Shown piece by piece: positions 703-26,357 of a stretch of DNA of 28,036 nt (position 1 is its first letter; each line of letters begins with the position of its first letter). The translations under genes and the position numbers were made by a program. Below the pieces are notes generated by a model that searched no databases, was not told the origin of the DNA, and was given only the letters and a program-made list of their open reading frames with translations. This stretch comes from a virus (Duplodnaviria; Caudoviricetes). The stretch covers positions 1 through 28,036 of the IMG/VR virus record IMGVR_UViG_3300044214_000008; one strand, written 5' to 3'.

Positions 703-703
703 G

Positions 704-1241: not shown

Positions 1242-1247
1242 TATTTA
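1242..1247 (-). promoter_or_regulatory. TAAATA late-type promoter motif
   Basis: GAAATAAATAT about 21 nt upstream of the GTG start at 1220. Confidence 0.6.
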
Positions 1248-1297
1248 TTTCTATGCTCATATATCTACTTGTTTAGGGGTAAATTTTGGGTATTTTA

Positions 1298-1531
1298 CCG
1301 AAGTAAGATTTTGATAAAATCAATTGAAAACTTTTTTTACGATAAAAAAAAAGAATGCTCTTTTTATTTTCATTCTTTTTTTTTACGATAAAACTTTCAT
1401 TAAAATATCTTACTATCTTACTTCAAAGAGTATAATATATATAAAAACAGTGTTTTAGGTATCTGCAACGCTGTTTTTCCGAAGTAAGATTTTTTTCCAT
1501 ATCTTACTTCGAAGTAAGATTTTCTTACTTC
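1298..1531. repeat. Putative replication origin with iterons
   Basis: GAAGTAAGAT at 1300, 1481, 1511; its inverse ATCTTACTTC at 1415 and 1501, partial at 1407 and 1523. Perfect 20-bp palindrome at 1501-1520. Very AT-rich, and directly downstream of the helicase gene. Confidence 0.75.
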
Positions 1532-3168
1532 ATGAGCCCTTTCAACACTGTGACCGTGGGTTTTTCTTGTCGTTCATCAAGCCAATTGTGTAATCCCAGC
1601 ACTCTACCGGCATCATCTTTATTAAGATAAACATTTTCATTATAGGATCTTACTACGCGACCATTCACCGAATTGTTTACCAACATTTTCCCTTGTCCCT
1701 CTTGAGCGTTTAATTGCCAACTTTGGCGTTCACCATAACGCCATCCCACAACCAAACCCCGGGCAACTTGATCAGTCAAACCCGCAATAAATTTATTTCT
1801 ACCCAAAACACCACGATTATTGTAATGCTGTTTACCAATTTCCTTATAAACAATGTATAAATCATCCATCATAAATGCCAGTGGTTTATGATCATAATCC
1901 GCCAATAAAACTGTTTCAATAAGTTGATCCAAAGGGCTCTTATGTGCTTCCACCATTCTATCAAAAGCCTCACCATGATATGCGGCTACAGGACGATCCT
2001 CTTTAATTTTGGCCAGCAAGTAGCCTAACCAAATGCTTAAGTTTCCATCTGTAAAATCTTCCTGCACAAGTCGATCCCAAGCCGCTTTGTATTCAGCTTC
2101 ATCCTTTTTATCGTATATTTGATTCTTGCGTTTAGCCATCCAATAAAACAAATCTTTAGTATAATGTATGGCGCTGATTCGTCGTGTTGTGCTATCATTG
2201 CTGATACTGAGTGGTCCGCCTGCTCCCTGTCCACTGACATGTAACCACATAATATTGGGAACACTAACTACATCACTATAAAGTTTCTTCATGAGAAAGT
2301 CTTTGTTACCCGCAATACTCTTAAAACGATCGTAGTCTGATTTACTGTCAATGGTTTCATCCACCAGCACACATACTTTACCCAATAGCATAGCAGGGTT
2401 TTCAGTCAAGGTCTTAAAGTTGGTTACTGCACAGGACTTCTTAAAGATCTTACTGAGTATGTGTGTATTAAGTTCATTTTTACCCACACCCCCTTGTCCA
2501 AACATCAGTAAATTTGGGATTTTGTAATCACCGGGATGCCTATATTTTCTAACAATACATTCCTCCAAGTGATCTCTAATTTCAATGTCACCAGCACTGA
2601 GACTTTCCATGAGTAAATCAATACCCTGGGGACATTTATATGTTTTTACTATACCCGTATATTCCTGGGCTTTTAACCAATTATCACTTACACCCTGTGC
2701 CAAATTAAATGTAGTTTCCGGACAGTAACCAAAAGTAAATGTGTAATCAAGATAATTTCTATTTTCCTTTTCCAATAGGGAATGGAATATATTTTGTTCA
2801 GTTTTATTTTGGAACCTAAAGATCTCACGATCTATTTGTGTTAAATCTCGTGCGTGGTATTCATCGTTTATTTTAACCATGTAACCCTTTTGCCCAATGA
2901 TCTGCTTAACATCAAATTGATTAATTTTATCCAATAATATCTCCGCTATTCTTGCACTGTATTGTTCGCTACTTTCTATTTCAGCTTGTATCTTTGCTGA
3001 TTTAATTTGTTGTAATTCTTCAACTAAGGCAGTTACTCGATCACTGGCCTGTTTAACCAATTCTTGATTCTTACCGCTGGTTTCATCTCGTCGTAACTTA
3101 TTATGTGCATCTGCCAGTCCTTTCCTGGCTGCTGTTAATTCAGGCCTAACTATATTTTCATCTCTCAT
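1525..3168 (-). CDS. Superfamily 3 (D5/P4-alpha-like) replicative helicase
   Basis: Walker A FGQGGVGKN, Walker B VLVDE, FKSIAG...MKKLY motif, TTRRI arginine finger, probable winged-helix C-terminus. Overlaps the primase stop (ATGA). Confidence 0.85.
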   Translation of the reverse strand: MRDENIVRPELTAARKGLADAHNKLRRDETSGKNQELVKQASDRVTALVEELQQIKSAKIQAEIESSEQYSARIAEILLDKINQFDVKQIIGQKGYMVKINDEYHARDLTQIDREIFRFQNKTEQNIFHSLLEKENRNYLDYTFTFGYCPETTFNLAQGVSDNWLKAQEYTGIVKTYKCPQGIDLLMESLSAGDIEIRDHLEECIVRKYRHPGDYKIPNLLMFGQGGVGKNELNTHILSKIFKKSCAVTNFKTLTENPAMLLGKVCVLVDETIDSKSDYDRFKSIAGNKDFLMKKLYSDVVSVPNIMWLHVSGQGAGGPLSISNDSTTRRISAIHYTKDLFYWMAKRKNQIYDKKDEAEYKAAWDRLVQEDFTDGNLSIWLGYLLAKIKEDRPVAAYHGEAFDRMVEAHKSPLDQLIETVLLADYDHKPLAFMMDDLYIVYKEIGKQHYNNRGVLGRNKFIAGLTDQVARGLVVGWRYGERQSWQLNAQEGQGKMLVNNSVNGRVVRSYNENVYLNKDDAGRVLGLHNWLDERQEKPTVTVLKGLMK

Positions 3169-4208
3169 TTTATATTCCTATACTTAAATTGCTTAAATGT
3201 TGGCCTTCTCATGTCAGCCAAGACATCTACTTTTTTATTCTCTCGTTTGGGCTCTATACCGTTATGTGCTTTAATAAACTCATCACGCTTGTCAGCTCTA
3301 ATTCTATCACTGGTCCAACTAATCCAGGCATTTCTGCGTGTATGGGGATTCATTAACTGGCTATCTGCACTGGCTATTCTTTGACAAATATTATCAAACT
3401 CGTCATAACTACAACCGATACTTTTACATATACTAACCAAAGTTAGCACACCCAAATTATTGGCACCTTGCCCAGCATAGTGTAATCCACTGCAAGTCAG
3501 CAGGCTTTTTATAATGGATTCCTTATATTGTGCAGCCTGTTGTGATGTTAATGTAGTTGTGTTATCTCTAACTGGTTCCACATATACTTTAGGTGCCCTA
3601 TACTCAAAATCATTATAGGGATCCAACATGTAACCTTTGTTGTGATAGACAATGGGATCATTGGAACCACTATGGAAGTAAAAACTTTGGCTCAGCGTAA
3701 AACTTGCATGATCCACCAAAGGATACCTTTCTATAATGCTGGCTTGTCTACCCGCAATATCCTGCGCCAATAATGGTTGACTAAAAGGTATTACAATCCT
3801 AAATTTATGCCGATTAAATGTATGACGGAATGTGGTGTAAAGGACATATTCAATTGATTGGAATGTAGCCATGGCTTCTTCCAGTGTCATATTCTCATCC
3901 ACATCCAATACGATGCCTGTGAGGCTTATCACATTATTTTTACAACGCCTAACAGTATTGGGTATTTCGTCATAAGCCCCGGTGGCGTCTCTAACAAACA
4001 CCCCATCTATCACGGTGCCTTTATAACGCCTACCCTGTTCTGCATCTGGGCCTGCTTGCTTAAACTCCGCCATGTTAAACATAAGAACATCTTCCTTACG
4101 GTCGGCAGGATGATGGCGCATTAATAGCTGTGCAATATCCTGCCAGGGTAAATCCATATGCTCTAACACATAGGCTTTACCCACACTCTTAAATGTAGAA
4201 ATAACCAT
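3165..4208 (-). CDS. AEP-superfamily primase (prim-pol) with helical C-terminal domain
   Basis: GIVLDVD catalytic DxD, LYTTFRH, KFRIVIPFSQP and VDHAS motifs; adjacent to the SF3 helicase. Confidence 0.8.
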   Translation of the reverse strand: MVISTFKSVGKAYVLEHMDLPWQDIAQLLMRHHPADRKEDVLMFNMAEFKQAGPDAEQGRRYKGTVIDGVFVRDATGAYDEIPNTVRRCKNNVISLTGIVLDVDENMTLEEAMATFQSIEYVLYTTFRHTFNRHKFRIVIPFSQPLLAQDIAGRQASIIERYPLVDHASFTLSQSFYFHSGSNDPIVYHNKGYMLDPYNDFEYRAPKVYVEPVRDNTTTLTSQQAAQYKESIIKSLLTCSGLHYAGQGANNLGVLTLVSICKSIGCSYDEFDNICQRIASADSQLMNPHTRRNAWISWTSDRIRADKRDEFIKAHNGIEPKRENKKVDVLADMRRPTFKQFKYRNIK

Positions 4209-4211
4209 GGC

Positions 4212-4379
4212 TTAAAACCACAAGTCTGCTTCTGAGATTTTAATATTGTTCAGATAACAATACTGGTGTATCTCCCTAAGAACCTCGGTGATATTATTAT
4301 AAGCGTCGTTGTTAGGATAGTGCTGCAATTGTGTGGCCAATCCAATCATGGCTTCAATTAGATCTTGTTTACACAACAT
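4212..4379 (-). CDS. Hypothetical protein, 55 aa
   Basis: Hand translation: MLCKQDLIEAMIGLATQLQHYPNNDAYNNITEVLREIHQYCYLNNIKISEADLWF*. GGAG SD; fills the gap between 4369..4734 and the primase. Confidence 0.75.
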   Translation of the reverse strand: MLCKQDLIEAMIGLATQLQHYPNNDAYNNITEVLREIHQYCYLNNIKISEADLWF

Positions 4380-4734
4380 GATTGGTCTCCAGGTCAGATT
4401 CCAGTTCCTCTACAAACTGATCCAATATGGTTTGTATATCGTCTTCGCAATGCACAACTCTTACTATACTGTCTGCATTTACTAAAGGCTCCCCGGTCTT
4501 TCTATGTTTACCGGTTTTTTTAATTTTTAACCCATTGACAATGATACCAAAGCCTTCATCATACCCTTGTATGATGTCGCTCCAACGGCGAAAGTTTTGA
4601 TTACTTTCGTCCACATAAGTGTGGGCAATTTGATTGTTTGTATTGGCAAATGTAATTTCATATATTTCATTGCCGTAAATGCTTGGGCGTTGTGTGACCT
4701 TCATCACCACCCAGTTTTGGGATAGTTCTTTCAT
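4369..4734 (-). CDS. Hypothetical protein, 121 aa, first gene of the replication operon
   Basis: AGGAG SD at 4741-4745; beta-rich pattern with an acidic C-terminal tail. Confidence 0.8.
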   Translation of the reverse strand: MKELSQNWVVMKVTQRPSIYGNEIYEITFANTNNQIAHTYVDESNQNFRRWSDIIQGYDEGFGIIVNGLKIKKTGKHRKTGEPLVNADSIVRVVHCEDDIQTILDQFVEELESDLETNHVV

Positions 4735-4761
4735 ATGTAACTCCTAATTATAACATAGCAT

Positions 4762-4790
4762 ATTCTATATGTATAGTATTTATTAGTCAA
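4762..4790 (-). promoter_or_regulatory. Sigma70-type promoter with TAAATA embedded in the spacer
   Basis: TTGACT (4790-4785), 17-nt spacer, TAGAAT (4767-4762). TAAATA at 4782-4777. Confidence 0.75.
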
Positions 4791-4825
4791 GTCACTTTTT
4801 AACCGGATATGCTGCTAAAAATGGG

Positions 4826-4861
4826 AAAAAGATAAAGCCCCGGATCATTGCAATCCGGGGC
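4826..4861 (-). terminator. Intrinsic terminator
   Basis: GCCCCGGAT-TGCAATG-ATCCGGGGC (9-bp stem) followed by TTTATCTTTTT. Confidence 0.85.
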
Positions 4862-4940
4862 CTTATAAGAGCTATAACATTACCGAGAAAGGTTTTTTTG
4901 ACATAACAATTGGAGTTGATAACATCAAAGCCCTCGAAAA
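4826..4940 (-). ncRNA. Candidate small RNA A (about 105-110 nt)
   Basis: TAAATA at 4946-4941, then an ORF-less stretch with a possible stem (TTTGATGT/ATGTCAAA) presenting ACTCCAATTG, then the terminator. Confidence 0.45.
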
Positions 4941-4943
4941 TAT

Positions 4944-5162
4944 TTAGTCCTCATTATTCAATTCCTGCTGTAGTTTAGCGAACTGTCTCTGTTTAGTTTC
5001 TATTACTTCAATTAGATTCAGTTCCTTACGCAATTGGTGTAATGCTTCGGCTACTTCATGTCCTGTGGGATAGCGTTTATAAAATTCCCACATCCAAGCT
5101 AATGCTTCTGTAACGCCTTCAGGATCTGCATCAGTAATATAATAATCATATTTTGGTTTCAT
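4944..5162 (-). CDS. Hypothetical protein, 72 aa
   Basis: AGGA SD; ATGA overlap with the upstream gene; coiled-coil-like C-terminus. Confidence 0.75.
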   Translation of the reverse strand: MKPKYDYYITDADPEGVTEALAWMWEFYKRYPTGHEVAEALHQLRKELNLIEVIETKQRQFAKLQQELNNED

Positions 5163-5434
5163 CTAATGTATCCTATTGTTTGTCCATTTCGATCAGTTAT
5201 AATTCTACGACTGACACTGGCACGCCCGCCACCACACCAACTGGGCATTTGATATCCTTCTGGACGAGCCAGTTCTTTACGGCGGGCTTCATTGGTTCCA
5301 CCTGTTTGGCAGGGATCCGCTTGGTCGTAGTGTAATGCTATACGATCAAATACAGGATGTCCGGGTCCAAATGCACAACCTGTAACAGTGGCAGTTAGAA
5401 TTATGATTGGGAGTTTATTCATCATCCACTTCAT
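5159..5434 (-). CDS. Predicted lipoprotein
   Basis: MKWMMNKLPIIILTATVTG-C: basic N-region, hydrophobic core and lipobox-like VTGC. GAGGT precedes ATG 5434; the exact start is uncertain (5446/5434/5425/5422). Confidence 0.65.
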   Translation of the reverse strand: MKWMMNKLPIIILTATVTGCAFGPGHPVFDRIALHYDQADPCQTGGTNEARRKELARPEGYQMPSWCGGGRASVSRRIITDRNGQTIGYIR

Positions 5435-5609
5435 AAACGACCTCATAGTATTCTTTAATGATACGAGCCCGATACATTTCGGGTATGTTTGCTTTTGCTT
5501 CTTTCAATGAAGGATAGTATCCAACCTCATGCCACCGAGGCTCCAGTTCTTGCCCGGTCCGTCTATGTTGCCTATGCTTGAGTATTTGGACACTATATGA
5601 GAAGTTCAT
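5415..5609 (-). CDS. Hypothetical protein, 64 aa
   Basis: Coding-strand ORF with TAAATA at 5648-5643 upstream; weak SD. Confidence 0.65.
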   Translation of the reverse strand: MNFSYSVQILKHRQHRRTGQELEPRWHEVGYYPSLKEAKANIPEMYRARIIKEYYEVVYEVDDE

Positions 5610-5832
5610 AATCTTATTATGACACCTATGTAAATTATTGCCTATTTAATTCCAGCGAAAAAACCTGCTCTGCAGATACCGCGGATAGCGAAAAAACCGT
5701 TGTTTTTTTGCGATTTTCCTAAACACCCTGGTTTTGATCTATTCACTATCATGGATACATACGCAATTCTTAAGGGCCCTAAAAACGCATTATTTTTAGT
5801 AATACGGAATTACTACATAATACTTTTACCAT

Positions 5833-5864
5833 AAAAAATCCCCCAAGCGTTTCCGCCGGGGGGA
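5833..5864 (-). terminator. Intrinsic terminator
   Basis: TCCCCCCGGCG-GAAA-CGCTTGGGGGA followed by TTTTTT (GNRA loop). Confidence 0.85.
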
Positions 5865-5919
5865 CCAAGTATTAGGATACATATGAGACAAATAAATCGG
5901 GAGACTAACTTGTCATATA
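5833..5919 (-). ncRNA. Candidate small RNA B (about 80 nt)
   Basis: TAAATA at 5925-5920, just after the preceding terminator; no minus-strand ORF; contains TCTCCC and TCATATGTATCCTAAT; has its own terminator. Confidence 0.55.
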
Positions 5920-5936
5920 TATTTATCTATTGACAT

Positions 5937-5968
5937 AAGAAAAGCCCCAGGTTTGTGACCCAGGGCTT
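5937..5968 (-). terminator. Intrinsic terminator
   Basis: AAGCCCTGGGT-CACAA-ACCTGGGGCTT followed by TTCTT. Confidence 0.8.
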
Positions 5969-6018
5969 CCGAGGATAAAAAGCTACTCAAAATGGCCTAA
6001 TATTCATTGTAGCAATTT
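5937..6018 (-). ncRNA. Candidate small RNA C (about 75 nt)
   Basis: TAAATA at 6024-6019; GCTAC...GTAGC stem enclosing GGCCATTTT; linker TTTTTATCCTC; terminator. Confidence 0.5.
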
Positions 6019-6064
6019 TATTTAGCATATTAAAAACAGGTAGGCTAATCCCTGTAGTGAGTAA

Positions 6065-6622
6065 TTATGATATCACGCGATCCTCGGGATCGATATCGTA
6101 TGCTAAGGTTAAAGATTCGAGATTCTCACGAGGAGAACCAAGATGTGTTTGCATCCAGTCCCCATCATCTTCAAAATATTTACTACGGAAGTTCTCATAA
6201 TAGCCCGTTAGATACAGGTTCTCATTTTCAGTTAACACTGTGGCGTTCTTCTTACTCCATAACAATGTTTTTCTATTACGGTCTTTTTGTTCACGCTCGT
6301 TACGCCAATATATTCGAACTTGTAATGTGTGTAACCAAGCCATAAATTCTTCTTCTTGTTCTTTTGGAACATGGTAAACACTCCACCAAAACTTATCTTT
6401 CTTGGGGCGATATAAAACTTGGTTCTCAATAAACTTACATTCTATAGGATGAGTTGTATAAATTGCGTGGTTATAGTTATCGGGTTCAGGGAACTTAAAG
6501 TCACTGATCCGTTCATATGGTTTAACCCAACCAATATGACCGGAGATTGCGACCCGTGGGTCCTTAACTATTTTACTGGTGGACCCATGGATCCAAAATA
6601 TTTCTGCAAAAGGATATCTCAT
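6065..6622 (-). CDS. Hypothetical protein, 185 aa
   Basis: Long coding-strand ORF, aromatic-rich; no recognisable motif and no obvious SD. Confidence 0.75.
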   Translation of the reverse strand: MRYPFAEIFWIHGSTSKIVKDPRVAISGHIGWVKPYERISDFKFPEPDNYNHAIYTTHPIECKFIENQVLYRPKKDKFWWSVYHVPKEQEEEFMAWLHTLQVRIYWRNEREQKDRNRKTLLWSKKNATVLTENENLYLTGYYENFRSKYFEDDGDWMQTHLGSPRENLESLTLAYDIDPEDRVIS

Positions 6623-6653
6623 GTTTTAATTTATGCCAAATACTCTGCACAAA

Positions 6654-6926
6654 TTAATGGGTGATGATATACCCAATCACAGTCAATATAGCTGTAGCAA
6701 TAGTTCCGATAGTGGTAATCAACTGGATCGTTCGGGCATTACTTTGTCTTTCCAAAAGGAGTCTAAGATCACTGAACCCTGTCTGCACATCCACTTTAAG
6801 CGAAGACATTTTATCTTCCACGGTAGTGAGTCGTTTCTCGATATCATCAAACTTCTCCTCTATTCCCTTGTATCTCAGAGCGCAAATCTCCACATGAGCC
6901 GCTAAGTTACTTTCTTCTTGTGTCAT
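6654..6926 (-). CDS. Coiled-coil protein with C-terminal transmembrane helix (XhlA/holin-like architecture)
   Basis: Heptad region IEEKFDDIEKRLTTVEDKMSSLK, then hydrophobic LITTIGTIATAILTVIGYII; lies after the tail-fibre genes. Confidence 0.65.
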   Translation of the reverse strand: MTQEESNLAAHVEICALRYKGIEEKFDDIEKRLTTVEDKMSSLKVDVQTGFSDLRLLLERQSNARTIQLITTIGTIATAILTVIGYIITH

Positions 6927-7081
6927 CTCTTCTTTGCCTTTGCCTGTGCTTGAACACTGAGTGCAATCGCCACTGCTTGTCGTTGACTCATGTTTGGATG
7001 CTTCTTCATCTCAAAGGCAATGTTCTTACCCACTGCTTTTGGACTTGCACTTTTAATTAAATGTTTCTGTGTCTTTGCCAT
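6923..7081 (-). CDS. Small basic phage protein, 52 aa (QAVAIALS motif)
   Basis: Hand translation: MAKTQKHLIKSASPKAVGKNIAFEMKKHPNMSQRQAVAIALSVQAQAKAKKR*. AAGGA SD; ATGA overlap with the next gene. Confidence 0.8.
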   Translation of the reverse strand: MAKTQKHLIKSASPKAVGKNIAFEMKKHPNMSQRQAVAIALSVQAQAKAKKR

Positions 7082-7090
7082 TATTGTTCC

Positions 7091-9628
7091 TTAAACTGCT
7101 GAATTATCATGGACATAACTCCATCTTGAGTTACTGGTGTCCCAAAATGCTAACTTACCACCCGCATCACTAACTGCGGCTGTCCAACCTACTGATCCTG
7201 TAATTGCTCTTAAGGCACTTGCAGTATATGTTGGATACTTAAAGAATCCTGAACCAGAACTAATACTACCTTTAATCTGTAGATCTCCTGAATCAGTCAA
7301 TGCAAATAACATGTTTGCATAACCGCTGTCAATGATCTCCAATTGTCCTGTGTTATTCAATCGAATAAATTTACTGGTGTTGGTTGCACCACTGGTAGTA
7401 TTTGTTAAAGTCATTAGACCAGCATAACCAGCACCACCATGTGCATTGTTATTGGCAATGGTAACTTCAGGTGTAAATGTCGCAGCCGTTGCACTTAAAG
7501 ACATTCTTGTTGCAAGAGCACCAAGTGATCCACCACTTGTATTTGCCCTGGTATCGAATGTCATTGTGCTGCCACCCGCTGTGGCTGTAAAATCTTCAGT
7601 CGCTGTGGCAGTTACTCGTGCTGTTAAGTTACTGGTGCCTGTATCTGCACCATAACTACCGCCGTTGCTAACTTTAGTTCCCCAAATAGCAAATTGTCCT
7701 GCAATATCACCAGACTTAATTGCTTGTCTACGACCAGGAATACCAGATTGTCTATTACCAACAATATTAAACGCATTAGTTGCTAATAAGGTGTAGTTAT
7801 CAGGACCTGTTACAATTGTAAGTGGGCTACCACTTGAACCTGCTAATTGACTGATGCTAACTGTATAAGTTCCAGCACCACCTGTGCCAGTGCCCAGGGC
7901 AGTAATTCTTGTAAGTTGACTGATACCAGACCCATAAACCTGTTGTCCAACGCTTATAGTGCCACTACTCGGTGTTGCTGTAACTGTTAGTGTTGTGCCT
8001 GCTGAGCCAGCACCGTTATCAATATAACCAGTAAATGTTGCAGTATCCTGTTCCGTAACACCGGTAATGGTTAGGTTGTTATTGGGGAACGCACTGACAA
8101 ATCTACCATGTCCTTGATATCTTGTATTACCATCACTACTGGTTAAAATATTACCTGCCGTAGCATCACCAAAGCCCATGTTACCAACACCTGGCTGTGG
8201 AATAGTCACGCCCGCAACTGTAGTTGTGCCGGGATTTGCACCCCAGTTATTATTAAACCAACTGGCTAAACCGCCACTGTTAAGTTTAATACCTACGGGT
8301 AAACTTTGGAATAAAAATCTTGAACCTGCCGCTTTTGTGCCTTTACCAGTGAATGCGCCCGGGCTACCGGAACTGAATAATGTTTGGCTTACACTAACTG
8401 TATAAGTGCCTGCACCACCTGTGCCTGTTCCATATGCATTAAGTTGTGTGCCTGGCTGAATACCAGTAGCATCTAACAATAAGCCGGGATGCACATTGGT
8501 GCCGGCTGTAACTGTTAGGGTTGTGCCCGAAATATAACCAGTAAAACTGGCAGTGTCATTTTGGAATGCTTCGCTGGCCAGCGAATACATTCCATTTGGC
8601 GCATTGGTATTACCTGTTTCACTGGTAAAATCTGCTCCGTTATATCCACCAAAACGCACTATACCATATGTAGCACCATTAGCAACAGCACTGCCAGAAC
8701 CTGTGCTGGCAGGCAAACCTCGTTTGCCTTCAAACCATATGCTGGGTGTTGGGTTGGTAGCACTGGTGCCACCTGGACGATTTTGTCCATATTCACGCAC
8801 ATGCAATTGACCTAATTGACCACTGGTAGTATTATCTACATATAGGCTCATGGGTTTTAGGCCTTGAGTAGATACTACAATACTATTGATAGCCCCTGTG
8901 CTATCAACTGCGGCACCACCAAGTGCGGCTGTTTTAGTTGATTGAACGCCTCGACTGCCAATTAAATTACTGCTGGCTGTAACTGCATTAAATGTGACAT
9001 CACTGCTGGTGCTAACTGCTTGTCCAATACTGATTATGCCAGTAGAACTATCATAGGTTACCCCTGTGCCTGCTGAATGTGCGGCACGAGCCTGTGAATC
9101 TGTATACTGAGTAATTGTCGAACTAATAACGCCGGTTGAACTGTTATAACTGATACCTGTTCCAGCAGTTAAGGCTGCACGGGCTTGAGCATCTGTATAT
9201 TGGGTAATGGTGCTGCTGATGATGCCTGTTGCACTGTCGTAACTAATTCCAGTGCCAGAGGAGAGATTACTTCTAATTTCACCAGCACTTGCACCAGTAT
9301 AGGCAATAACTCCAGTGCTATTATTGTAAGACAGACTACCCAGACCGCTGGCATTAGATACCGAGATGGCAGCCTTTGCACGAGTGTTTGTAAAATAGAG
9401 ATTAGTAGTGCCTTCATTTAATTGGTCCGTATTAGTAATGCTGTTATTGATTTCAACGATGCCACCTGTGCTGACGGCAACATTGAGTGGTGTGCTGGTG
9501 ATAGCAATATTACTGCTGGGATTACCTACTGCAATAACCTGATCTGTAGGTGTTGTAACAGTAAAACTACTGTTGGGTTTTGTGACGGAGAAAGTGCTGT
9601 TAGGCACTGTGACATTAATTTCTGCCAT
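7091..9628 (-). CDS. Tail fibre / receptor-binding protein, 845 aa
   Basis: Gly/Ser/Thr-rich; repeated AGTGISYxSSTGxIS units; duplicated FTGYI..GTTLTVT...[16 protein letters not shown] module. Confidence 0.8.
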
Positions 9629-9637
9629 GTGTGCTCC

Positions 9638-10141
9638 TTAAACTGTAAATGCAGTGTAACCTGTCGCTGTGGTAGGATCGCCTATTGTTACACCTGGTTC
9701 ATAACTTTGAATGAATGCCCAGCGATGGCTGTTGACCTGTGTGGGAGTATCATTAGTGGTCCATTGGAATGTTACAATGCTGATAGCAACCTTACTGCGG
9801 GCATCTGGAATGACTGGGCCGGAATATAATCCACCAGGTATTGTTAGTTTAAGACTGCCAGTTGTAGCATTTACTATATTGATAACAGTCGTGTCTGTTG
9901 CATGTGTTACTGGTGCGAAATAGCCAATTACAAGGCTATTTGCAAAATTGGGTTCTCCGGTAATTCTATCCCAGGCTACGGGATCTACTACCAGTGTTTG
10001 ACTCTTTACTGAATATGTCCAATCTGTAATGTTTTGGTTAAAATTGTAAAGATATGTTCTTTTCGTTGAGGGGAAGATCTCTTCCACTTGTATGTTGTCA
10101 GGACCACCTAAGTAGTCGCTAAATCGTAATACTCCTGCCAT
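9638..10141 (-). CDS. Putative fibre-attachment/baseplate (BppU-like) structural protein
   Basis: Beta-rich 167-aa ORF between fibre genes (INIVNATTGSLKLTIP); strong AGGAG SD. Function inferred from context. Confidence 0.5.
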   Translation of the reverse strand: MAGVLRFSDYLGGPDNIQVEEIFPSTKRTYLYNFNQNITDWTYSVKSQTLVVDPVAWDRITGEPNFANSLVIGYFAPVTHATDTTVINIVNATTGSLKLTIPGGLYSGPVIPDARSKVAISIVTFQWTTNDTPTQVNSHRWAFIQSYEPGVTIGDPTTATGYTAFTV

Positions 10142-10162
10142 TTCATTTCTCCTAAAGGACGA

Positions 10163-10196
10163 GTAAAGGACACTAAGGCATCCTTTACACTATTTA
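10163..10196 (-). promoter_or_regulatory. TAAATA motif followed by leader hairpin
   Basis: TAAATA at 10196-10191, then GTAAAGGA-N10-TCCTTTAC, then the SD. Confidence 0.55.
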
Positions 10197-10200
10197 ACCT

Positions 10201-10362: not shown

Positions 10363-10372
10363 ATTATACTCC

Positions 10373-11752: not shown

Positions 11753-11798
11753 AATTCATTGTCCTTATGTTAACTGATGGTTCTAACCATCCAGTGTC

Positions 11799-16238: not shown

Positions 16239-16242
16239 ATCT

Positions 16243-17385: not shown

Positions 17386-18071
17386 TGTATTGCCTCCGTT
17401 AATCCAAAGTCACCGGTAAATTCTGCAAATCCACCAGGAATCATTTTAATATTAGGTAACTGTGTTACTTGCACATACCATTTGCAGGCAGTGCCCACCT
17501 TAATCTTACGCTGATTATTAGTGCTACTGAGTGGATCATAGTTAGCCTGTGCAATAAAGCCACGATGCACATTGATAACTTTGGTTGTATCACCGGTTGT
17601 AACTGAGACATCAGCAGTAACCGTATAGGGATAACGATATTCCAAATCATCGCTGCCAGTTCCAGCCATTTGAATAATGTCACCTGCTTTTACCAATGTG
17701 TAAGAACCTGTGATGCCAGATACATTGACTGTTAGTGCAGATCCACTATATGTGGAGAGGTAAACATTATCCAATACTCCGCTGGTCCTGGGCGCTGTGC
17801 CTTGATATTCGATTAGCCATGCGCTGCCCGTGTTTTGCCCCAATTGTAGTGTTTGGATGCTGACTCTATCACTATTCATGATGGGCTCTATTAGATTGCG
17901 GTTAGTTGCCCAATCCCAAATAGGCTTGGGGCTAACTGTAAATCTCCAGGGATTGGCCCAGTTACGGCTGGCAGTTAGTAATCTACCACTGCGGCTCAGT
18001 GTTTGTGCAACTAACTTGCTTTTGTTAATCTCAATAGTTACTGCGCTATCTATAATAGTTTGTAAACTCAT
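17382..18071 (-). CDS. Distal tail protein (putative)
   Basis: First gene after the tape measure; SRSGR...WRFTV pattern; ends in EAI. Confidence 0.6.
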   Translation of the reverse strand: MSLQTIIDSAVTIEINKSKLVAQTLSRSGRLLTASRNWANPWRFTVSPKPIWDWATNRNLIEPIMNSDRVSIQTLQLGQNTGSAWLIEYQGTAPRTSGVLDNVYLSTYSGSALTVNVSGITGSYTLVKAGDIIQMAGTGSDDLEYRYPYTVTADVSVTTGDTTKVINVHRGFIAQANYDPLSSTNNQRKIKVGTACKWYVQVTQLPNIKMIPGGFAEFTGDFGLTEAIQ

Positions 18072-18073
18072 CT

Positions 18074-20434: not shown

Positions 20435-20435
20435 A

Positions 20436-20711
20436 TTATCTTCCTAAAGTCTTTCTAACATAGTCTCTAACTGCTTGAATGGCAGGTTCCACCATACCTT
20501 TAGGACTTTGTTTGCTATATCCTTCATCTAATCGTTTAGCATATGGATAAGCCGCATCTATTTCATTAGCCGTTCTGGTTGTATGCTGTTTTGCATAACC
20601 AGTTCTAACAGGGGTGTTTTTAACAAATGCTGGGTATGCAACATCAGTCATTCTTTGGGCCGTAATATATTGCTGTAGATATTTCAGCCTACTGCTGATA
20701 TTTGATTTCAT
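20436..20711 (-). CDS. HK97 gp10-like tail completion/neck protein
   Basis: TPVRTG...YAKRLDEGYSKQSPKGMVEP pattern; basic 91-aa protein. Confidence 0.65.
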   Translation of the reverse strand: MKSNISSRLKYLQQYITAQRMTDVAYPAFVKNTPVRTGYAKQHTTRTANEIDAAYPYAKRLDEGYSKQSPKGMVEPAIQAVRDYVRKTLGR

Positions 20712-20977
20712 TGCTGTGCCTTTCTATTACGGGCTCTTTCCAACATGGCAATCATTTCCTCTTGAGTTGGTTGTTTATGGCCTGGAACTGCATTGTTCGC
20801 TGCCGCCTCATTCAACTCATTTCTATATGAGACAGCCGCAGTTAAAACAGTAAGATCAAGAGTGTTGGCTCGTTGGAGACATTCGCTGGGCAATATACCA
20901 TATCGCTCTGCCATACTGTCCAACATAATCAACATATTAAAGTCTTGACCTTTCTTATCTAACTGCTCGCCTGTTAC
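20708..20977 (-). CDS. Tail assembly chaperone frameshift extension (gpT-like)
   Basis: The -1 frame is open from the slippery site (VTGEQLDKKGQDFN) into the ORF-track protein 20708..20935. Confidence 0.8.
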   Translation of the reverse strand, partial: VTGEQLDKKGQDFNMLIMLDSMAERYGILPSECLQRANTLDLTVLTAAVSYRNELNEAAANNAVPGHKQPTQEEMIAMLERARNRKAQQ

Positions 20978-21276
20978 TTTCCCAAGCGTTCTACCACTTG
21001 GTTTACTACTGCCATCATCAGGTCCGGAGGGATTGTGTTACCATCTTTGATTACTGGTTCACCCGCTTCATCTAATATTAAACTGTTTACGATATTGATT
21101 ACATCCGCCACATTATCGGGCTGTAATGTTGCCATCTTGATAAACTGCTCAATTGGTTGTCTATCGTAAATCCAAAATTCCACTGCATCACCATATTTCT
21201 CGACAATGGCTGCATCCTCAACTGTAATTTTAATCAGTTGTGGCTTCTTTGTTAATTGTGTTAATTTAATCGACAT
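20974..21276 (-). CDS. Tail assembly chaperone (gpG-like)
   Basis: Lies between the tail tube and tape measure genes; ends in GGGAAAG-TAA. Confidence 0.8.
   Translation of the reverse strand: MSIKLTQLTKKPQLIKITVEDAAIVEKYGDAVEFWIYDRQPIEQFIKMATLQPDNVADVINIVNSLILDEAGEPVIKDGNTIPPDLMMAVVNQVVERLGK
20977..20983 (-). other. -1 programmed ribosomal frameshift site GGGAAAG
   Basis: Same heptamer as the lambda G/T site, in the correct phase (G GGA AAG) just before the stop. Confidence 0.88.
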
Positions 21277-21281
21277 ATCTT

Positions 21282-21452
21282 TTATTCCTCAAATCGTTGT
21301 TGTAGATGATTAATTGCGGCTAATATAAACTTTAGACGCACATCTGCTTGGTTAAGATCTCCACGGGCGCATTTTAATTCAGATGCGGCTTTGGCTGCTT
21401 CTGCCAGAATGCTGGCGTAGATTTCTTCGTTTGTTTTGTTGTTAAACATCAT
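21282..21452 (-). CDS. Small helical protein, about 56 aa
   Basis: ORF track 21282..21524. The upstream part overlaps a terminator, so ATG 21452 (GGAG SD at 21468-21465) is preferred. Confidence 0.7.
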   Translation of the reverse strand: MMFNNKTNEEIYASILAEAAKAASELKCARGDLNQADVRLKFILAAINHLQQRFEE

Positions 21453-21494
21453 ATCTTTATAGATCTCCAAACCTATACCATACTTATCAATAGG

Positions 21495-21516
21495 AAAAGG
21501 GGTATTGCTACCCCTT
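21495..21516 (-). terminator. Intrinsic terminator after the major tail gene
   Basis: AAGGGGTA-GCAA-TACCCCTT-TT (8-bp stem, GNRA loop); a TAAGTA variant motif follows at 21486-21481. Confidence 0.75.
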
Positions 21517-21553
21517 AACACCACCGAAAACTTTTCTGCTGTTAAGCTATTGC

Positions 21554-22021
21554 TTAGGCAACAGTAAAGTCACCAGTCACAGTTAAAGTCACTGGGCTAA
21601 CCCAAACTGGGCTATCTGCACTGACTTTAGGTGCTAAACCAGTAACATATCCGCTTCCGCTGATAGTCTTACCTGCTGCACCACTGCTTGTATCACCAAG
21701 ATATAATTCAAAGGATACTAACTGTTTGTCTTTGCTTAAACCAAAGATACCTTTGGTCTTTGCACTTTCACCGGCAGTTGTTGTGCCGAAGAATGCTGCT
21801 TGATCTAAAACTAAGTTCATACCAATGCTGTTTGTTGCTGTAGTTGCAACTTGTAGTTTGGAACTGCTGTCCAACTGTGTCCAAGTGAATACATCATTAG
21901 CGTTGTTAACGGTAATGTCTTGTAGGCCTGGAACTGCTAAACCTGTTGTGTCACCAGATACTTTAAGAGTTAAAGTAAGTTCTGCTGCGCTAACACCAGG
22001 TGCTGGATAAATGTATGACAT
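21554..22021 (-). CDS. Major tail tube protein
   Basis: 155 aa, beta-rich, GKTISGSGYVTGL...VTLTVTG C-terminal pattern; upstream of the chaperone and tape measure. Confidence 0.8.
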   Translation of the reverse strand: MSYIYPAPGVSAAELTLTLKVSGDTTGLAVPGLQDITVNNANDVFTWTQLDSSSKLQVATTATNSIGMNLVLDQAAFFGTTTAGESAKTKGIFGLSKDKQLVSFELYLGDTSSGAAGKTISGSGYVTGLAPKVSADSPVWVSPVTLTVTGDFTVA

Positions 22022-22031
22022 TTTATCTTCC

Positions 22032-22424
22032 TTATGCTATGTTAGAAAATCTATATTCAAATTCATAGATAAGACGATCGTTATCTATGGTTGTTATATA
22101 GTCAAACTCGCGTTTGTGAACGCCAGTTATTGTAGTGATATCCTTAGCACTACCGAGTGTGTCTAATGCTTGATCTAAGTCCTGATTTCTGTTTTTGGCA
22201 TCAACGGATAGAAAGCCTTTGATAGTAATTGTGCGCTCATTGACATTACAACCACCAAGTGTTGCATACATTGAACGCTGTTCTGTCTTGGGCTCATCTA
22301 AGTAAACTCGTCTTGGATTACGCAAGTAAAGTGGATTATTACCTTCTTGGAACGGCAACTCTTGACTGGTCTTTATGGAACCAGTTAGTTGGTCTGTCAA
22401 ATAAGTTAATAATTCCGTTTTCAT
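22032..22424 (-). CDS. Tail terminator-like protein (putative)
   Basis: 130 aa, directly upstream of the tail tube gene; call from synteny. Confidence 0.55.
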   Translation of the reverse strand: MKTELLTYLTDQLTGSIKTSQELPFQEGNNPLYLRNPRRVYLDEPKTEQRSMYATLGGCNVNERTITIKGFLSVDAKNRNQDLDQALDTLGSAKDITTITGVHKREFDYITTIDNDRLIYEFEYRFSNIA

Positions 22425-22927
22425 CTTACGCGAACCCTGTTTACTATGCTGGGGAATTTCTCCCCAGTTTCTATTGTGCCATCAGCATCGAAGTCATACC
22501 AATCGCCTGATTGAATTAAATCCTGGAACAACTTATCATATTGGTCTCTATAGAAGTTGATCTTTGCCACTTCCGCACTATCTGGATTACCAAAATCCGC
22601 AACTGCTGGATATAGGTAGTCTTTGAGTGCAAAGTAAACATTGAGATCTATAAATTCCTGATAACGACTTTTAATGCAAGTGGGATCTACAACTGGTAAC
22701 AGGCGTAGATCGTGTTGCAATGTGGGCATCATCTTAAAACAAGTAGTCTTCCACCAGTCAGTATTTCTAATTTGTGTTAGAATACGCTGACTGGCTTGTG
22801 ATAGATAATCATCAACATTATTTTCGGTAATTCCTTCGTTAGCCTCAAGAATTCGTTGATCACGCTGGACCAAGTCGTCATAAGTCGCGAAACTTATTAG
22901 AGATTGATTATAAAATACAAAAGCCAT
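22421..22927 (-). CDS. Head-tail adaptor (putative)
   Basis: First gene after the capsid; FATYDDL N-terminal motif, helical; contains DFDADGTIE. Confidence 0.6.
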   Translation of the reverse strand: MAFVFYNQSLISFATYDDLVQRDQRILEANEGITENNVDDYLSQASQRILTQIRNTDWWKTTCFKMMPTLQHDLRLLPVVDPTCIKSRYQEFIDLNVYFALKDYLYPAVADFGNPDSAEVAKINFYRDQYDKLFQDLIQSGDWYDFDADGTIETGEKFPSIVNRVRVR

Positions 22928-22948
22928 CGTGATCTCCTAAATCATTGA

Positions 22949-23794
22949 TTAAAGAATAGAACTATCTGCGATTACGCCAACGCCGTAACCATCATAGATC
23001 TCGCCAACACCGTAGTGGCAACTTGCGACAACATCAGTGCCAAGGTAACTTGCACGACGCTGAGTTTCAACATTGATGTCACCAATCATAGCAAGACCAA
23101 GTGCTTCACGGTGGAAAACACCACCAATGTAGTCACCAGCAGTGCCAGTATCTGCAACAAGAGAACTTTCAAACACAGGGATGCCGAATAGCATACCAAC
23201 ATAGCCTTCTGCCATGGCCGCATTCTGGATGATACCAGCGTTAGGGTTAGCAAATGTGTTTGTTAAGTTGGCCTTTAAGTCATAAGCGACATAAGGGTTA
23301 ACAACACATGCCAACTGGTCAGCAGGAACACCAGCAGCGCGTAGTTTAGCAGCAGCCTTAGCGATTGTAGCGGCGCTTAGAGCAGTAGCGTTGTCACCAA
23401 CTGTGCCACTGAAGCCACTGAATAGAGCCATAAGGTCTGTATCAATCTTACGAGCAATTGCTTCACCGAATAGTTTACCTAAGTCAGCAACAACATTGCT
23501 TGCTGCACTGGCGATAGCCAAGTCAGTAACCAATGTGCGAATTGCAGCAGTAGCGATAGTTAGAGTTGCACCGTCTGTAGAAACAGCAGTGTTAGTAACT
23601 TCGTTACCTTCTGTTAATGTAGCCGCAGATTGTAGCGGATAGATAGGAACAGTAACAGTTTTACCTTGACCTGGAGCCAAGTTATAATTTTTTACCAAGC
23701 CACGCATGATAGAGCGTTCGCCGGCAACGAACATAGCCTCAGCAACAATGCTTGGCAATAGGTCGTTAAGAGTAGTGGATGTAGATCCTGACAT
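22949..23794 (-). CDS. Major capsid protein (HK97 fold)
   Basis: GKTVTVP, LTEG, GEAIARKID, VVNPYVAYDL, VGMLFGIPVFES, VETQR...TDVV...YG motifs; follows the scaffold gene. Confidence 0.92.
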   Translation of the reverse strand: MSGSTSTTLNDLLPSIVAEAMFVAGERSIMRGLVKNYNLAPGQGKTVTVPIYPLQSAATLTEGNEVTNTAVSTDGATLTIATAAIRTLVTDLAIASAASNVVADLGKLFGEAIARKIDTDLMALFSGFSGTVGDNATALSAATIAKAAAKLRAAGVPADQLACVVNPYVAYDLKANLTNTFANPNAGIIQNAAMAEGYVGMLFGIPVFESSLVADTGTAGDYIGGVFHREALGLAMIGDINVETQRRASYLGTDVVASCHYGVGEIYDGYGVGVIADSSIL

Positions 23795-23813
23795 AATATA
23801 TTTTCCTTAAAAA

Positions 23814-24485
23814 TTAGGCAATTCCAGCGGATTTACGATATTCCGCATAGATTTTTCTGTGTTCTGGATTCTTCATATCCAATTTCGTGATATCGAGTTT
23901 ATCAGCACGAGCACCTACATTACTGCGTGTAGCAGTGGTAGAGGGTGTTGGTTGAACAAAGTGTGGGTTCTTAGTTAAGAATTCTTGAACATAAGAATCA
24001 ACGGATAGTGGACGACCGGAATCATCATACCTCACCTTACCTTCACCGTCAGTAACTTCAACTTCGCCGTCACCATTTAAGCGAACACGATCGCGGACCA
24101 GTGTTTTAATCTGATCAGGTGCAACTGCGCGGAGTCGGGCTGCGGCATCCAATATAGGAGTGTTGACTTTGAATTCCTCAATCATTCGATCACGCTTGGA
24201 GATTTCTAAATCCTTTTTAGATACTACATCTTGTAGCACCTTTTCGAATTCACCCTTTTTCATTTGTTGATCTTGTTGATGTTTGCGGTAATTGCTAACA
24301 ATATCACGCAGCTCTTCAGGATCACCTAAGTCTTCGAACTTACTGGCGAACTTCTTCTCTAATTGAGTTTTAGTTTTAGCCATCATTGCGTTGACTTCTT
24401 CTTGAGTGAATGTCTTTGCCTGAGAATTAGTTTGGTCAGTGGTCTCAGTAACCTCTGTCGTTGCCGATGTATTTTCTTGACTCAT
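23814..24485 (-). CDS. Capsid scaffolding protein
   Basis: KTFTQEEVN motif, charged coiled-coil, KNPHF near the C-terminus; between portal and capsid genes. Confidence 0.85.
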   Translation of the reverse strand: MSQENTSATTEVTETTDQTNSQAKTFTQEEVNAMMAKTKTQLEKKFASKFEDLGDPEELRDIVSNYRKHQQDQQMKKGEFEKVLQDVVSKKDLEISKRDRMIEEFKVNTPILDAAARLRAVAPDQIKTLVRDRVRLNGDGEVEVTDGEGKVRYDDSGRPLSVDSYVQEFLTKNPHFVQPTPSTTATRSNVGARADKLDITKLDMKNPEHRKIYAEYRKSAGIA

Positions 24486-24518
24486 CGTATGTCACACCTT
24501 CCTTTGAAGTAAAATTTG

Positions 24519-24553
24519 TGGCACCATCACAGTGCCATTTATGTTAGTATTTA
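24519..24553 (-). promoter_or_regulatory. TAAATA motif followed by leader hairpin upstream of scaffold/capsid
   Basis: TAAATA at 24553-24548, then TGGCAC-TGTGATG-GTGCCA. Confidence 0.6.
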
Positions 24554-24559
24554 TTACTG

Positions 24560-26332
24560 TTAATTAACTATAGGTCCGCCCGGAGCCCAATCATCACATG
24601 TTCTTGCTGGTGTGCAAGTTATATCCCATTTAACACAGTAGCCTGCTGGGTTAGGAACATTCTCCCAAGCAGGATTAACTTCTGTTGCCAGAGGTATATT
24701 ACCTGCTGCCATATTGCTGGAATAACAATCTTTAATTGCCTGTGTATTAACATAGTAACCACAGTTGGAGCAAGTTTGACTCTTACTTTCTATTTCCATG
24801 ATATTCAATCTATCTGCTCTTTGAATCCAGAAAACACCGGGATTAGTTACACTGGCTGGTCCTAAGTTGGCTTGTTCCACACATATCAGATGATTAGCAA
24901 TATTTGTCTGTTTATCAGTCATTGGTAATGGGCAACCATTAATCATGCCTTCTTGTTCTATCTCAGCCATGGCCTCTACAGCATTGACAGGTGGTATGGT
25001 CATCTCACCCTCTAATGTGTCAATATCCAGGATCTCTGCAATGCGGCTGTCAATCTCTGCTTGTATTTCAGGACGAGCAGTAAGTTGCTTCATCTTTGCC
25101 AACTGATCCAGTTCATTGCTGATATTGCGTAATGCGTAATCATCTGGATACTCTATGGAACCTGTCCATTCTTGTCCAAGATACTGACAGACTTCTTGCC
25201 AGATCTGTTCTTCACCCAATTCGAGATTATCCGCAACACCGCTTAAACGAGCATTTAGTAATTGGAATTCTGTTTCGATTGCAATGCCACTCATGTCCCT
25301 GGTCTGGCTGCTACGAACACTGCCCACATTAGCCATGCCATCAATCATGTTTCTACGCTCATTGATACTGGCGTAAATTTTATCAATTTGTCCACCTTGG
25401 AATTGCAACACATAGGGTTTTAAGTTAGGATCCATGGTTTCTGGAATAGTAATAACTTGTCCAGCACTGGCACCTTGTGTATTAACCTGTTCCGTTGCAA
25501 CGAGACTTGGGTGTGTATCTAAACGAATGCTATCATAGACTTCTGCCAATTCATTGTAGATCATGCGCTGTTGATCTGCAATGTCATCTATTAGACTTTG
25601 TCCAATGCCACGCACAGGACTGCGCTCACCATAGATACAGACAAAAGGCAAACGACCTAATTCGTTTGGTAATTGCTCAACTGACTCCACAGTCTTTTTC
25701 TGTTGGTTGATTGTATAACTGGTAATTGTATCTCTTGTCCATTCAACTACAGTATTTGCTTCACCATTTACTTCTTCCAGGACTTTGATATAACTTAGGC
25801 TATAACCACCATTGGGTTGTCTTTCCCAAGTCCAGTCAAGAACTGCAAGTGGTGTGTATAGGCTTAGGTAAGGACGAGCATTAAGTGCCAGTTCTTCTGC
25901 AAGGCTGGTTGCACCTACGCTGGGTTTTGCAACACAGACCCATACATGTCCAAATACACTGCTCCAAGTGGCAACATCCTTCATGAATGCATCCATACTG
26001 CGTCCATCAAGATCTGCATCTTCCAGGATATTGTCTATGACAGGGTTACCATCTAAACTGCCAAAGTCTCTTACTGGTGCAATTCTAAATAGAAAACTGG
26101 TATAAAGACTGATCAGTCCGCGGCATTGATTATCCAAGGGGACATTTTGTAGTCTCAGTTGATATTCTCTATCACTTTCAAGGGTATAACGCTGGAGGTA
26201 TGTTCCATTACGGTAGGATTCTCCACCTTGATAAGAATCCATTAAAAATTGCCATCTTGATTGATAGCGTGTGTATAAAATATTAGCAGACACGGCCTCC
26301 GTGTATGCCTGTTGGAATGTTAAATCTGCCAC
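24560..26332 (-). CDS. Portal protein (SPP1 gp6-like) with Cys-rich C-terminal extension
   Basis: Follows terL; DADLDG, FGHVWV, NELGRLPFV, GQSLIDDIA and SGIA motifs; last ~125 aa contain CSNC...C...GYC...C...CDDW. Confidence 0.88.
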   Translation of the reverse strand: MADLTFQQAYTEAVSANILYTRYQSRWQFLMDSYQGGESYRNGTYLQRYTLESDREYQLRLQNVPLDNQCRGLISLYTSFLFRIAPVRDFGSLDGNPVIDNILEDADLDGRSMDAFMKDVATWSSVFGHVWVCVAKPSVGATSLAEELALNARPYLSLYTPLAVLDWTWERQPNGGYSLSYIKVLEEVNGEANTVVEWTRDTITSYTINQQKKTVESVEQLPNELGRLPFVCIYGERSPVRGIGQSLIDDIADQQRMIYNELAEVYDSIRLDTHPSLVATEQVNTQGASAGQVITIPETMDPNLKPYVLQFQGGQIDKIYASINERRNMIDGMANVGSVRSSQTRDMSGIAIETEFQLLNARLSGVADNLELGEEQIWQEVCQYLGQEWTGSIEYPDDYALRNISNELDQLAKMKQLTARPEIQAEIDSRIAEILDIDTLEGEMTIPPVNAVEAMAEIEQEGMINGCPLPMTDKQTNIANHLICVEQANLGPASVTNPGVFWIQRADRLNIMEIESKSQTCSNCGYYVNTQAIKDCYSSNMAAGNIPLATEVNPAWENVPNPAGYCVKWDITCTPARTCDDWAPGGPIVN

Positions 26333-26351
26333 TTGTTGTTCTCCTGTTGCA

Positions 26352-26357
26352 TATTTA
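26352..26357 (-). promoter_or_regulatory. TAAATA motif upstream of portal
   Basis: Overlaps the terL stop codon; about 19 nt upstream of the portal GTG. Confidence 0.55.

Follow-up and report, generated by a model that had tools for sequence, protein, structure and literature searches.

The stretch of DNA described in this work (the window) is the 28,036-nucleotide virus record IMGVR_UViG_3300044214_000008 of IMG/VR, assigned to the Caudoviricetes, and the element in question is the hexamer TAAATA, repeated in its intergenic gaps. Since a late-promoter box is present while a sigma factor and a lysis enzyme were not detected, dependence on a co-infecting large phage is likely: judged from its sequence, the genome is on balance a virion-encoding satellite that would receive its late sigma from such a phage, with the helper probably supplying the endolysin too. 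A broader proposal, a serious possibility though short of probable, is that the widespread freshwater clade to which the window belongs (26-31 kb) comprises full-virion, non-integrating satellites without a late regulator or endolysin of their own, whose virion genes would be wired to a gp55-like sigma of jumbo or T4-like phages and which carry diverged copies of a jumbo core gene, perhaps for helper interference. Such a clade would be virophage-like, as virophages share a late promoter with their giant virus.

The genome is complete, with a direct repeat of 42 nt (1-42 = 27995-28036) and a record class of direct terminal repeats (DTR), 100% complete; the arguments from absence therefore cover the whole genome. 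Pfam and PHROG scans of the 36 open reading frames (ORFs) identified a full head and tail module, nothing being borrowed there, unlike PICI, P4, PLE and cf-PICI. The same scans gave no match to a sigma, integrase, DNA polymerase or endolysin.

TAAATA boxes in the window

The nine intergenic boxes listed in the original prediction were all recovered at their coordinates on the minus (coding) strand, and a tenth, absent from that list, was identified at 222 (Table 1). Both strands together contain 14 copies, where dinucleotide shuffles predict 33.3 +/- 5.4. The coding strand has twelve, 10 of them intergenic and 2 genic (16661 and 6182, one more than the single coding-sequence copy noticed earlier), and the other two are antisense within genes (19652 and 26086). 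As TAAATA starts with a stop codon, two stricter nulls were applied. The boxes at 26357 and 4946 share their first three letters with the stop codon that ends the preceding gene; without such overlaps 8 strictly intergenic copies remain versus 2.45 expected (maximum of 7 in 200 shuffles of intergenic DNA), and antisense copies in strictly intergenic DNA are 0 versus 2.4. The intergenic enrichment implied by the prediction is thus present against shuffled backgrounds, and a stop-codon artefact as its source is ruled out, the excess persisting without the overlapping sites. Within genes, synonymous-codon shuffles gave 11.1 expected sense copies and 12.9 antisense, versus 2 observed in each case, a 4-5-fold depletion that fits avoidance of cryptic promoters on both gene strands.

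Single-mismatch variants were found at background level in the window, without enrichment. Two of them had been put forward as possible boxes: TAAGTA at 21486 is supported by its orthologs, 10 of 14 carrying TAAATA, whereas TAAATT at 6633 has no support. The proposal that most boxes lack a -35 element agrees with the pooled profile, flat upstream, with the exception of the box at 4782, located inside a near-consensus sigma70 promoter (TTGACT-17-TAGAAT). The box at 222 is doubtful as a promoter and may be a spacer of the ribosome-binding site (RBS), because only 3 nt separate it from the ATG and GGAG lies upstream.

The leaders of the portal and metallopeptidase-like genes (26315-26347 and 1203-1235; repeat family D9) share an identical 18-nt block from RBS to GTG after TAAATA, and the shared pattern had no other occurrence in IMG/VR and none in cultured phages. 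Three ORF-less units on the minus strand (6018-5832 and 4940-4825), each beginning at TAAATA and terminating in a hairpin and T tract, are candidate late small RNAs; similar box clusters were identified in relatives beyond the holin-like gene.

Table 1. Coordinates of the boxes, genes and other elements identified in the window
Feature	Position	Strand	Description
Genome	1..28036	-	Complete circular siphophage, 27,994 bp plus 42-nt terminal repeat; every called gene on the minus strand
TAAATA	217..222	-	Precedes 71-aa ORF crossing the junction into TerS-TerL; 3 nt to ATG, GGAG upstream
91-aa protein	427..702	-	Among cultured records, homologs found in jumbo phages alone (Atu_ph07, PA5oct/Paride group, Phosso)
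TAAATA	1242..1247	-	Precedes four-gene cluster 1220-291
Origin-like region	1221..1524	.	AAGTAAGAT repeats in both orientations, AT-rich inverted repeat; families D20, I10, I22
SF3/D5-type helicase, predicted	1525..3168	-	DUF5906 E 9.7e-7, Walker A motif
Primase	3165..4208	-	phrog_9765 E 1.3e-12
OB-fold protein, 121 aa	4369..4734	-	Atlas model pTM 0.66, TM 0.57-0.63 to OB folds
Dual promoter of replication operon	4747..4790	-	Sigma70-type TTGACT-17-TAGAAT at 4790-4762; TAAATA at 4782-4777 in the spacer; TG-extended TATAAT ending at 4747
TAAATA	4941..4946	-	Overlaps stop codon; precedes ORF-less stretch closed by terminator 4866-4832
TAAATA	5643..5648	-	Precedes small-gene cluster 5609-4944
TAAATA	5920..5925	-	Directly past the 5968-5936 hairpin; opens second ORF-less unit, hairpin and T tract near 5864-5832
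TAAATA	6019..6024	-	Opens ORF-less unit closed by hairpin and T tract near 5968-5936
Unknown protein, 185 aa	6065..6622	-	Ordered part alpha/beta, not sigma-like
Holin-like protein	6654..6926	-	Coiled coil and C-terminal membrane helix; profile matches 10/12 near-complete genomes
Siphophage virion module	7091..27996	-	TerS, TerL, portal, scaffold, capsid, connector, tail, tape measure, distal tail, hub, fibres; Pfam/PHROG matches
TAAATA	10191..10196	-	Precedes 167-aa gene, fibre gene and holin-like gene; orthologs 48-53 nt upstream in 7/8 copies
TAAGTA	21481..21486	-	Possible degenerate copy before small gene starting at 21452; in 10/14 orthologs TAAATA within 90 nt
TAAATA	24548..24553	-	Precedes scaffold-capsid-tail operon; most conserved site
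TAAATA	26352..26357	-	Precedes portal; overlaps TerL stop codon; GTG 19 nt on

The motif across the clade

Capsid searches recovered 62 and 80 IMG/VR loci in two overlapping sets, and 31 contigs were taken whole, with genes called by a simple in-house caller (starts approximate). The set of 21 long genomes comprises the window, G001-G003, G005-G010, G031-G040 and DSL-LC06, a lake-metagenome assembly; G004 (a near-duplicate of G006) and the partial G011-G021 were excluded. These 21 genomes contain 112 intergenic copies of TAAATA versus 28.5 expected and 4 antisense versus 26, and genic copies across the clade amount to 110 versus 467. The profile pooled from 135 de-duplicated sites is (A/C)TAAATA, with upstream positions at or below 0.24 bits beyond the -1 base and no -35 element. 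At the scaffold start TAAATA was identified within 90 nt in 20 of 23 gene copies of the clade (in the other three the start is called short) and in none of the four HTVC111P-type pelagiphages. A terminator-like hairpin precedes 31 of 140 sites; for comparison, the same holds for 43 of 2100 positions drawn at random from coding DNA, although this control is weak.

In a quick capsid tree (95 rows kept out of 162 scorable, from a total of 211) the motif fills a single clade of 70 rows, 69 of them positive (SH-aLRT 96). DSL-LC06 also carries the motif, its branch in this tree being long and unreliable. Depletion of TAAATA was found neither in the four cultured HTVC111P-type phages nor in 11 marine sister loci (ratio 0.83-1.41). 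The marine sister clade had scored 43 of 56 positive in a 340-nt span; this score is read as chance and the clade rejected as motif-positive, because TAAATA is not depleted there at 31-33% GC.

Resemblance to gp55-type late promoters

The late promoters of T4 lack a -35 element and are recognized by gp55, which with core polymerase transcribes accurately at a basal level, supercoiled plasmid DNA being the best template (PMC2988020); since gp55 alone yields basal transcription, its action in trans is biochemically possible. In the jumbo phage CBB, described as having a gp55-like sigma, ATAAATA precedes structural genes and homologs of gp33 and gp45 are lacking (PMC5259590). The geometry of the clade is similar: the first ATG follows TAAATA by 5 nt at 14 of 114 sites and by 4 nt at 9, any other distance from 0 to 11 nt accounting for at most 4, and the 5-nt peak is also present in the gp55-encoding phages G024 (20/129), HTVC008M (8/14) and G030 (5/12). 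The box of a T4-type late promoter spans -11 to -6 of the transcription start, a position on which the distance to ATG bears indirectly. Genic TAAATA is also depleted (observed/expected) in G022 (8/26), G025 (14/27), G023 (24/47), G029 (11/47), G030 (12/28) and P-RSM6 (13/28), and weakly so in DSL-LC03 (41/64) and HTVC008M (53/79). The suggested resemblance to T4-type late promoters is consequently upheld by the lone hexamer, the A/C at -1, the 5-nt peak and a purging from genes as in several gp55 phages. The boxes are very probably promoters, and likely T4-type late promoters.

Two other assignments were rejected. An archaeal TATA box or a sigma28-type promoter does not agree with the leaders, which are too short, nor with the profile, which has no second element; the consensus sequences of the archaeal TATA box and of sigma28, sigma54 and ECF boxes are taken here as general background. 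Phage rV5 was considered as an autonomous counter-example, having a T4-like motif without gp55 (PMC3606486); phrog_234 has no match in it, and its motif is different, TAAAATA being present in 5 of 35 late upstream regions and TAAATA in 1 of 35. TAAAATA can be taken for an extended -10 of sigma70 type and is therefore a different box.

Search for the reader of the promoter

The absence of a recognisable gp55, gp45 or sigma was corroborated in the window, and for gp55 and sigma in up to 31 relatives, so this genome differs from T4-like phages, which encode gp55 and gp45 themselves. The gp55 profile phrog_234 matched none of 16 small genomes and did match the T4, HTVC008M and DSL-LC03 controls. 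The gp55-like profile phrog_12791 was negative in two sets of 5 and 17 small genomes (0/22) and positive in 5 of 5 jumbo controls. When 14,978 six-frame pieces were searched with a profile built from 6 gp55-like proteins, no match was obtained (lowest E value 3, for HTVC112P), this target set having no positive control. A self-encoded sigma was thus rejected with all three profiles, and the gp45 profile phrog_223 has no match in the window.

Conservation was determined by all-against-all clustering and per-cluster profiles. Only the virion genes, TerS and the holin-like gene are near-universal in the clade; the commonest other non-structural family, His-Me-nuclease-like by eye, occurs in 8 of 12 genomes and is absent from the window. 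No non-structural gene common to every motif-bearing genome, a possible activator, was identified. One representative per non-structural cluster was scanned (150 with PHROG and Pfam, 44 and 60 with PHROG, 13 with Pfam), the scans covering ORFs from 55-60 aa up to 600-700 aa, and the matches were HNH nucleases, methyl- and glycosyltransferases, primases and helicases in certain genomes, fibres and two helix-turn-helix (HTH) proteins. That the hexamer is invariant while the phages have no regulator in common suggests that its reader is provided in trans.

Two window proteins had been singled out as candidates for a sigma or activator fold, and neither proved sigma-like. The product of 4369..4734 is predicted from its model to be a single-stranded DNA-binding protein. 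The ORF at 6065..6622 has three homologs besides itself and a model with pLDDT 66 (best Z 4.8 to ferredoxin-like folds), with no match in the Atlas and only uncharacterised phage proteins in BFVD, and was assigned to no fold. Neither this ORF nor the helicase had relatives in the IMG/VR or cultured-phage searches.

Early program and lysis

Strong intergenic sigma70-type sites before non-structural genes, with one exception before TerS, suggest that the host polymerase is probably sigma70-type and that TAAATA is a second promoter class; both classes overlap at 4782. In the origin-like region AAGTAAGAT is repeated at 1301, 1415, 1482, 1501 and 1512.

Lysis is represented only by the product of 6654..6926, inferred to be holin-like, with no endolysin beside it. 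The endolysin profiles phrog_894 and phrog_7, run in six frames, each matched none of 22 clade genomes, other lysin families being covered by the representative scans only. In the cultured HTVC relatives three match phrog_894 and the fourth phrog_7. The HTVC111P-type phages contain endolysin, HTH regulators, exonuclease and DnaD and lack the motif, and their early-gene clusters and endolysins are absent from the clade.

The genome G034 is DTR-complete and has 27,990 bp. Its virion module is full, and its non-structural DNA, some 3.3 kb (L300:5900-9200), yielded no ORF above 126 aa and no replication match. By its gene content it is the most reduced member and the best satellite candidate.

Candidate helpers

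The best lead to a helper is the Atu_ph07/PA5oct-like jumbo group, because it shares the 91-aa gene of the window and has a gp55-like sigma without a detectable gp45 clamp; Kyanoviridae-like myophages are a second possibility. The 14 cultured records matching the 91-aa product are all of 284-490 kb, and the jumbo homologs sit near DNA polymerase genes. The model is beta-rich (pLDDT 89) with no clear fold match (best Z 4.9). The family, unannotated, spans 87-100 aa with 704 representatives at 50% clustering, is conserved in jumbo phages and highly diverged in small ones, and its jumbo form was found in about 5000 stretches of IMG/VR. A gp55-like sigma of ~275-300 aa was identified in 8 of 11 large genomes with this gene, the three misses being 43-72% complete, and gp45 in none of five. 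The copies of 11 jumbos are 65% identical to one another and those of 9 small phages 31%, with 34% identity from one group to the other, a pattern that would fit capture and diversification. As a universal activator the gene was ruled out by its presence in 4 of 12 genomes.

Helper dependence and alternative explanations

The proposed cycle comprises four steps. After entry, host sigma70 RNA polymerase would transcribe the early and replication operon. The DNA would then persist or replicate through its own primase-helicase and origin, relatives lacking these using host or helper proteins. On co-infection by a gp55-encoding phage, the helper sigma on the host core polymerase would fire the TAAATA promoters, turning on the packaging, head and tail genes in step with the late phase of the helper. 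Finally, the particles would exit through helper lysis.

Several observations weigh against this dependence. Most small non-structural ORFs have no family match, so undetected lineage-specific activators or lysins may be among them, and two relatives encode HTH proteins, one of them (G032) of 64 aa and matching sigma-factor PHROGs and the other in G009. The sigma70-type sites, present in 16 of 21 genomes, together with the primase, helicase and origin, make early life look autonomous. TAAATA is also located upstream of non-virion genes in the window, and none of the window sites has the 5-nt spacing to ATG. In two jumbos of the candidate type the bare hexamer is not purged (G024 303/279, Paride 456/527), and the preference of G024 is GATAAATA; the paper on PA5oct gives TATAATA/TTGAC motifs and its main text does not contain TAAATA (PMC7318152), and a survey of pelagimyophages is described as unable to predict late promoters (PMC7029224). 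The 91-aa gene was found in only 4 of 12 and 1 of 10 small genomes, and its sharing is a sign of common hosts or gene flow, not of dependence. Tetranucleotide comparison singled out no helper, and a GTDB host scan gave five contigs of 4-16 kb in unrelated metagenome-assembled genomes, probably mis-binned. The sequencing runs, present as contigs, gave no indication of a helper or of integration. No integrase match was obtained in the window or in the representative scans, and neither an integrase nor an attachment device accounts for the way in which an extracellular satellite would meet its helper.

The best surviving alternative, unlikely in our judgement, is an autonomous phage in which a small protein of its own, lineage-specific or diverged, redirects host RNA polymerase to TAAATA, and lysis proceeds by an unrecognised enzyme or an endolysin-free route. 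The many ORFs without family, the sigma70 early promoters and replication genes, and the HTH or zinc-finger-like proteins of some relatives are in its favour, as is the purification of cultured relatives with the same virion module by dilution to extinction, with sequence checks (bioRxiv 2019.12.14.876532). Those cultured autonomous relatives, however, lack the motif and have endolysins. Autonomy also has to account for one invariant hexamer across the clade with no common non-structural gene, a profile without upstream operator information, a gp55 profile blank over all six-frame pieces, and three window candidates whose folds are not sigma-like.

A host alternative sigma, for example a stress- or stage-specific one, reading TAAATA as a lone -10 and timing the late genes to the state of the host is improbable. 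It needs no phage factor, in agreement with the missing conserved regulator, but gp55 phages have the same hexamer (ATAAATA in CBB; PMC5259590), base preference at -1 and 5-nt spacing, and the absent endolysin is left unexplained. The profile moreover has no sigma28-, sigma54- or ECF-like elements up- or downstream. Least probable of all, and by a wide distance from being probable, is a signal acting at the RNA level or through DNA binding (a processing site, translational enhancer, terminator tail or stop-codon context) rather than a promoter, for although 2 of 10 window sites begin with a stop codon and 31 of 140 copies lie directly after terminator-like hairpins, the enrichment persists without stop-codon overlaps, both gene strands are purged as expected of cryptic promoters, the post-terminator sites before genes without another promoter fit re-initiation, and the geometry equals that of known gp55 phages.

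Other features of the genomes

Judged by the capsid, four HTVC111P-type pelagiphages are the nearest cultured phages (50-53% identity), the capsid of DSL-LC06 having 42% identity to that of the window. The sequencing runs containing the window genome are freshwater metagenomes, possibly its source, with no RNA run listed among them. The portal ORF (590 aa; 24560-25000 region) has a Cys-rich C-terminal extension past the portal profile (residues 19-418), and portal length ranges from ~470 to 590 aa across relatives. A GNAT acetyltransferase at 16243-16689, between the hub and baseplate genes, is also present in HTVC111P-type phages and DSL-LC06.

The 4-base palindromes GTAC, CTAG and ACGT do not occur in positions 1-27994 of the window. 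Most of the relatives G001-G021 lack palindrome sets of their own, G005 strongly lacking TGCA, CATG, GCGC, AGCT, ACGT and GTAC, which suggests hosts rich in 4-cutter restriction systems. The non-structural regions of L069, L071, L082, L298 and L307 contain many HNH, NUMOD1-type, His-Me-like nuclease or DNA-binding ORFs, which could be homing endonucleases or anti-helper nucleases.

Implications and comparison with known systems

What the known phage satellites take from their helpers is virion parts or replication. A builder of whole particles borrowing the late sigma and lysis of its helper would, if confirmed, represent a novel form of parasitism between viruses and a further satellite class whose members pass as ordinary phages in metagenome catalogues, and the reading of abundant small freshwater phage genomes and of jumbo-phage control would change. 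Hidden satellites could be screened from sequence only, as genomes with a late-promoter box and without sigma and endolysin. If the autonomous alternative is true instead, a novel activator that mimics sigma and a novel route to lysis lie concealed in the clade.

The clade shares with the T4 family (gp55, gp33, gp45; PMC2988020) and the Rak2/CBB type (PMC5259590) a lone -10-type box ending in TAAATA, without -35, before virion genes, as well as the 5-nt spacing peak and, as in several gp55 phages, the depletion in genes. Unlike them, its promoter reader is not detectably self-encoded, and the window is a 28-kb siphophage and not a T4-like myophage. The HTVC111P-type pelagiphages (GOV VC_41), a group with SAR11 as host, have the same virion module and gene order and lack the motif, whereas the clade lacks their early module and endolysin. 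DSL-LC06, of the proposed family 'Nanhuiviridae', has the same module and order together with the motif; the words promoter, sigma and satellite never occur in the main text of its paper (PMC10611076).

Parasitism of lytic or jumbo helpers exists elsewhere. The expression of PLE of Vibrio cholerae is tied to the transcriptional progress of its helper, its activation being dependent on transcription of the lytic phage ICP1 (PMC13595925), and I55 is described as an integrated island and satellite of a jumbo phage (PMC12772148). PLE, P4, PICI, cf-PICI and I55 reside in chromosomes as integrated islands, encode integrases and take virion parts from their helpers, whereas the clade has its own virion and no detected integrase. 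P4 and PICI contain a primase-helicase-origin module like that of the window.

MiniFlayer and MulchRoom of Streptomyces (PMC10690885) and Ando (PMC13587820) resemble the clade in having their own packaging and capsid genes. Their helpers are described as large virulent phages (PMC10690885, PMC13587820); MiniFlayer is non-integrating and attaches to its helper (PMC10690885), and Ando is reported without lysis or tail genes (PMC13587820). They differ in having no replicases, the window presenting a primase-helicase and a full long-tail module, and in that a shared promoter or sigma is not mentioned in the available text of those papers, the dependence proposed here being on late sigma and lysis. 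The lack of replication genes typical of MiniFlayer is not a feature of the window, which has primase, helicase, OB-fold protein and origin, but would be of G034. In the literature covered, from which subscription papers are largely absent, no report was found of a phage satellite that encodes its virion and has a late promoter read by its helper. As proposed, the window would work like a satellite virus of the MiniFlayer kind, and not like PICI, P4 or PLE.

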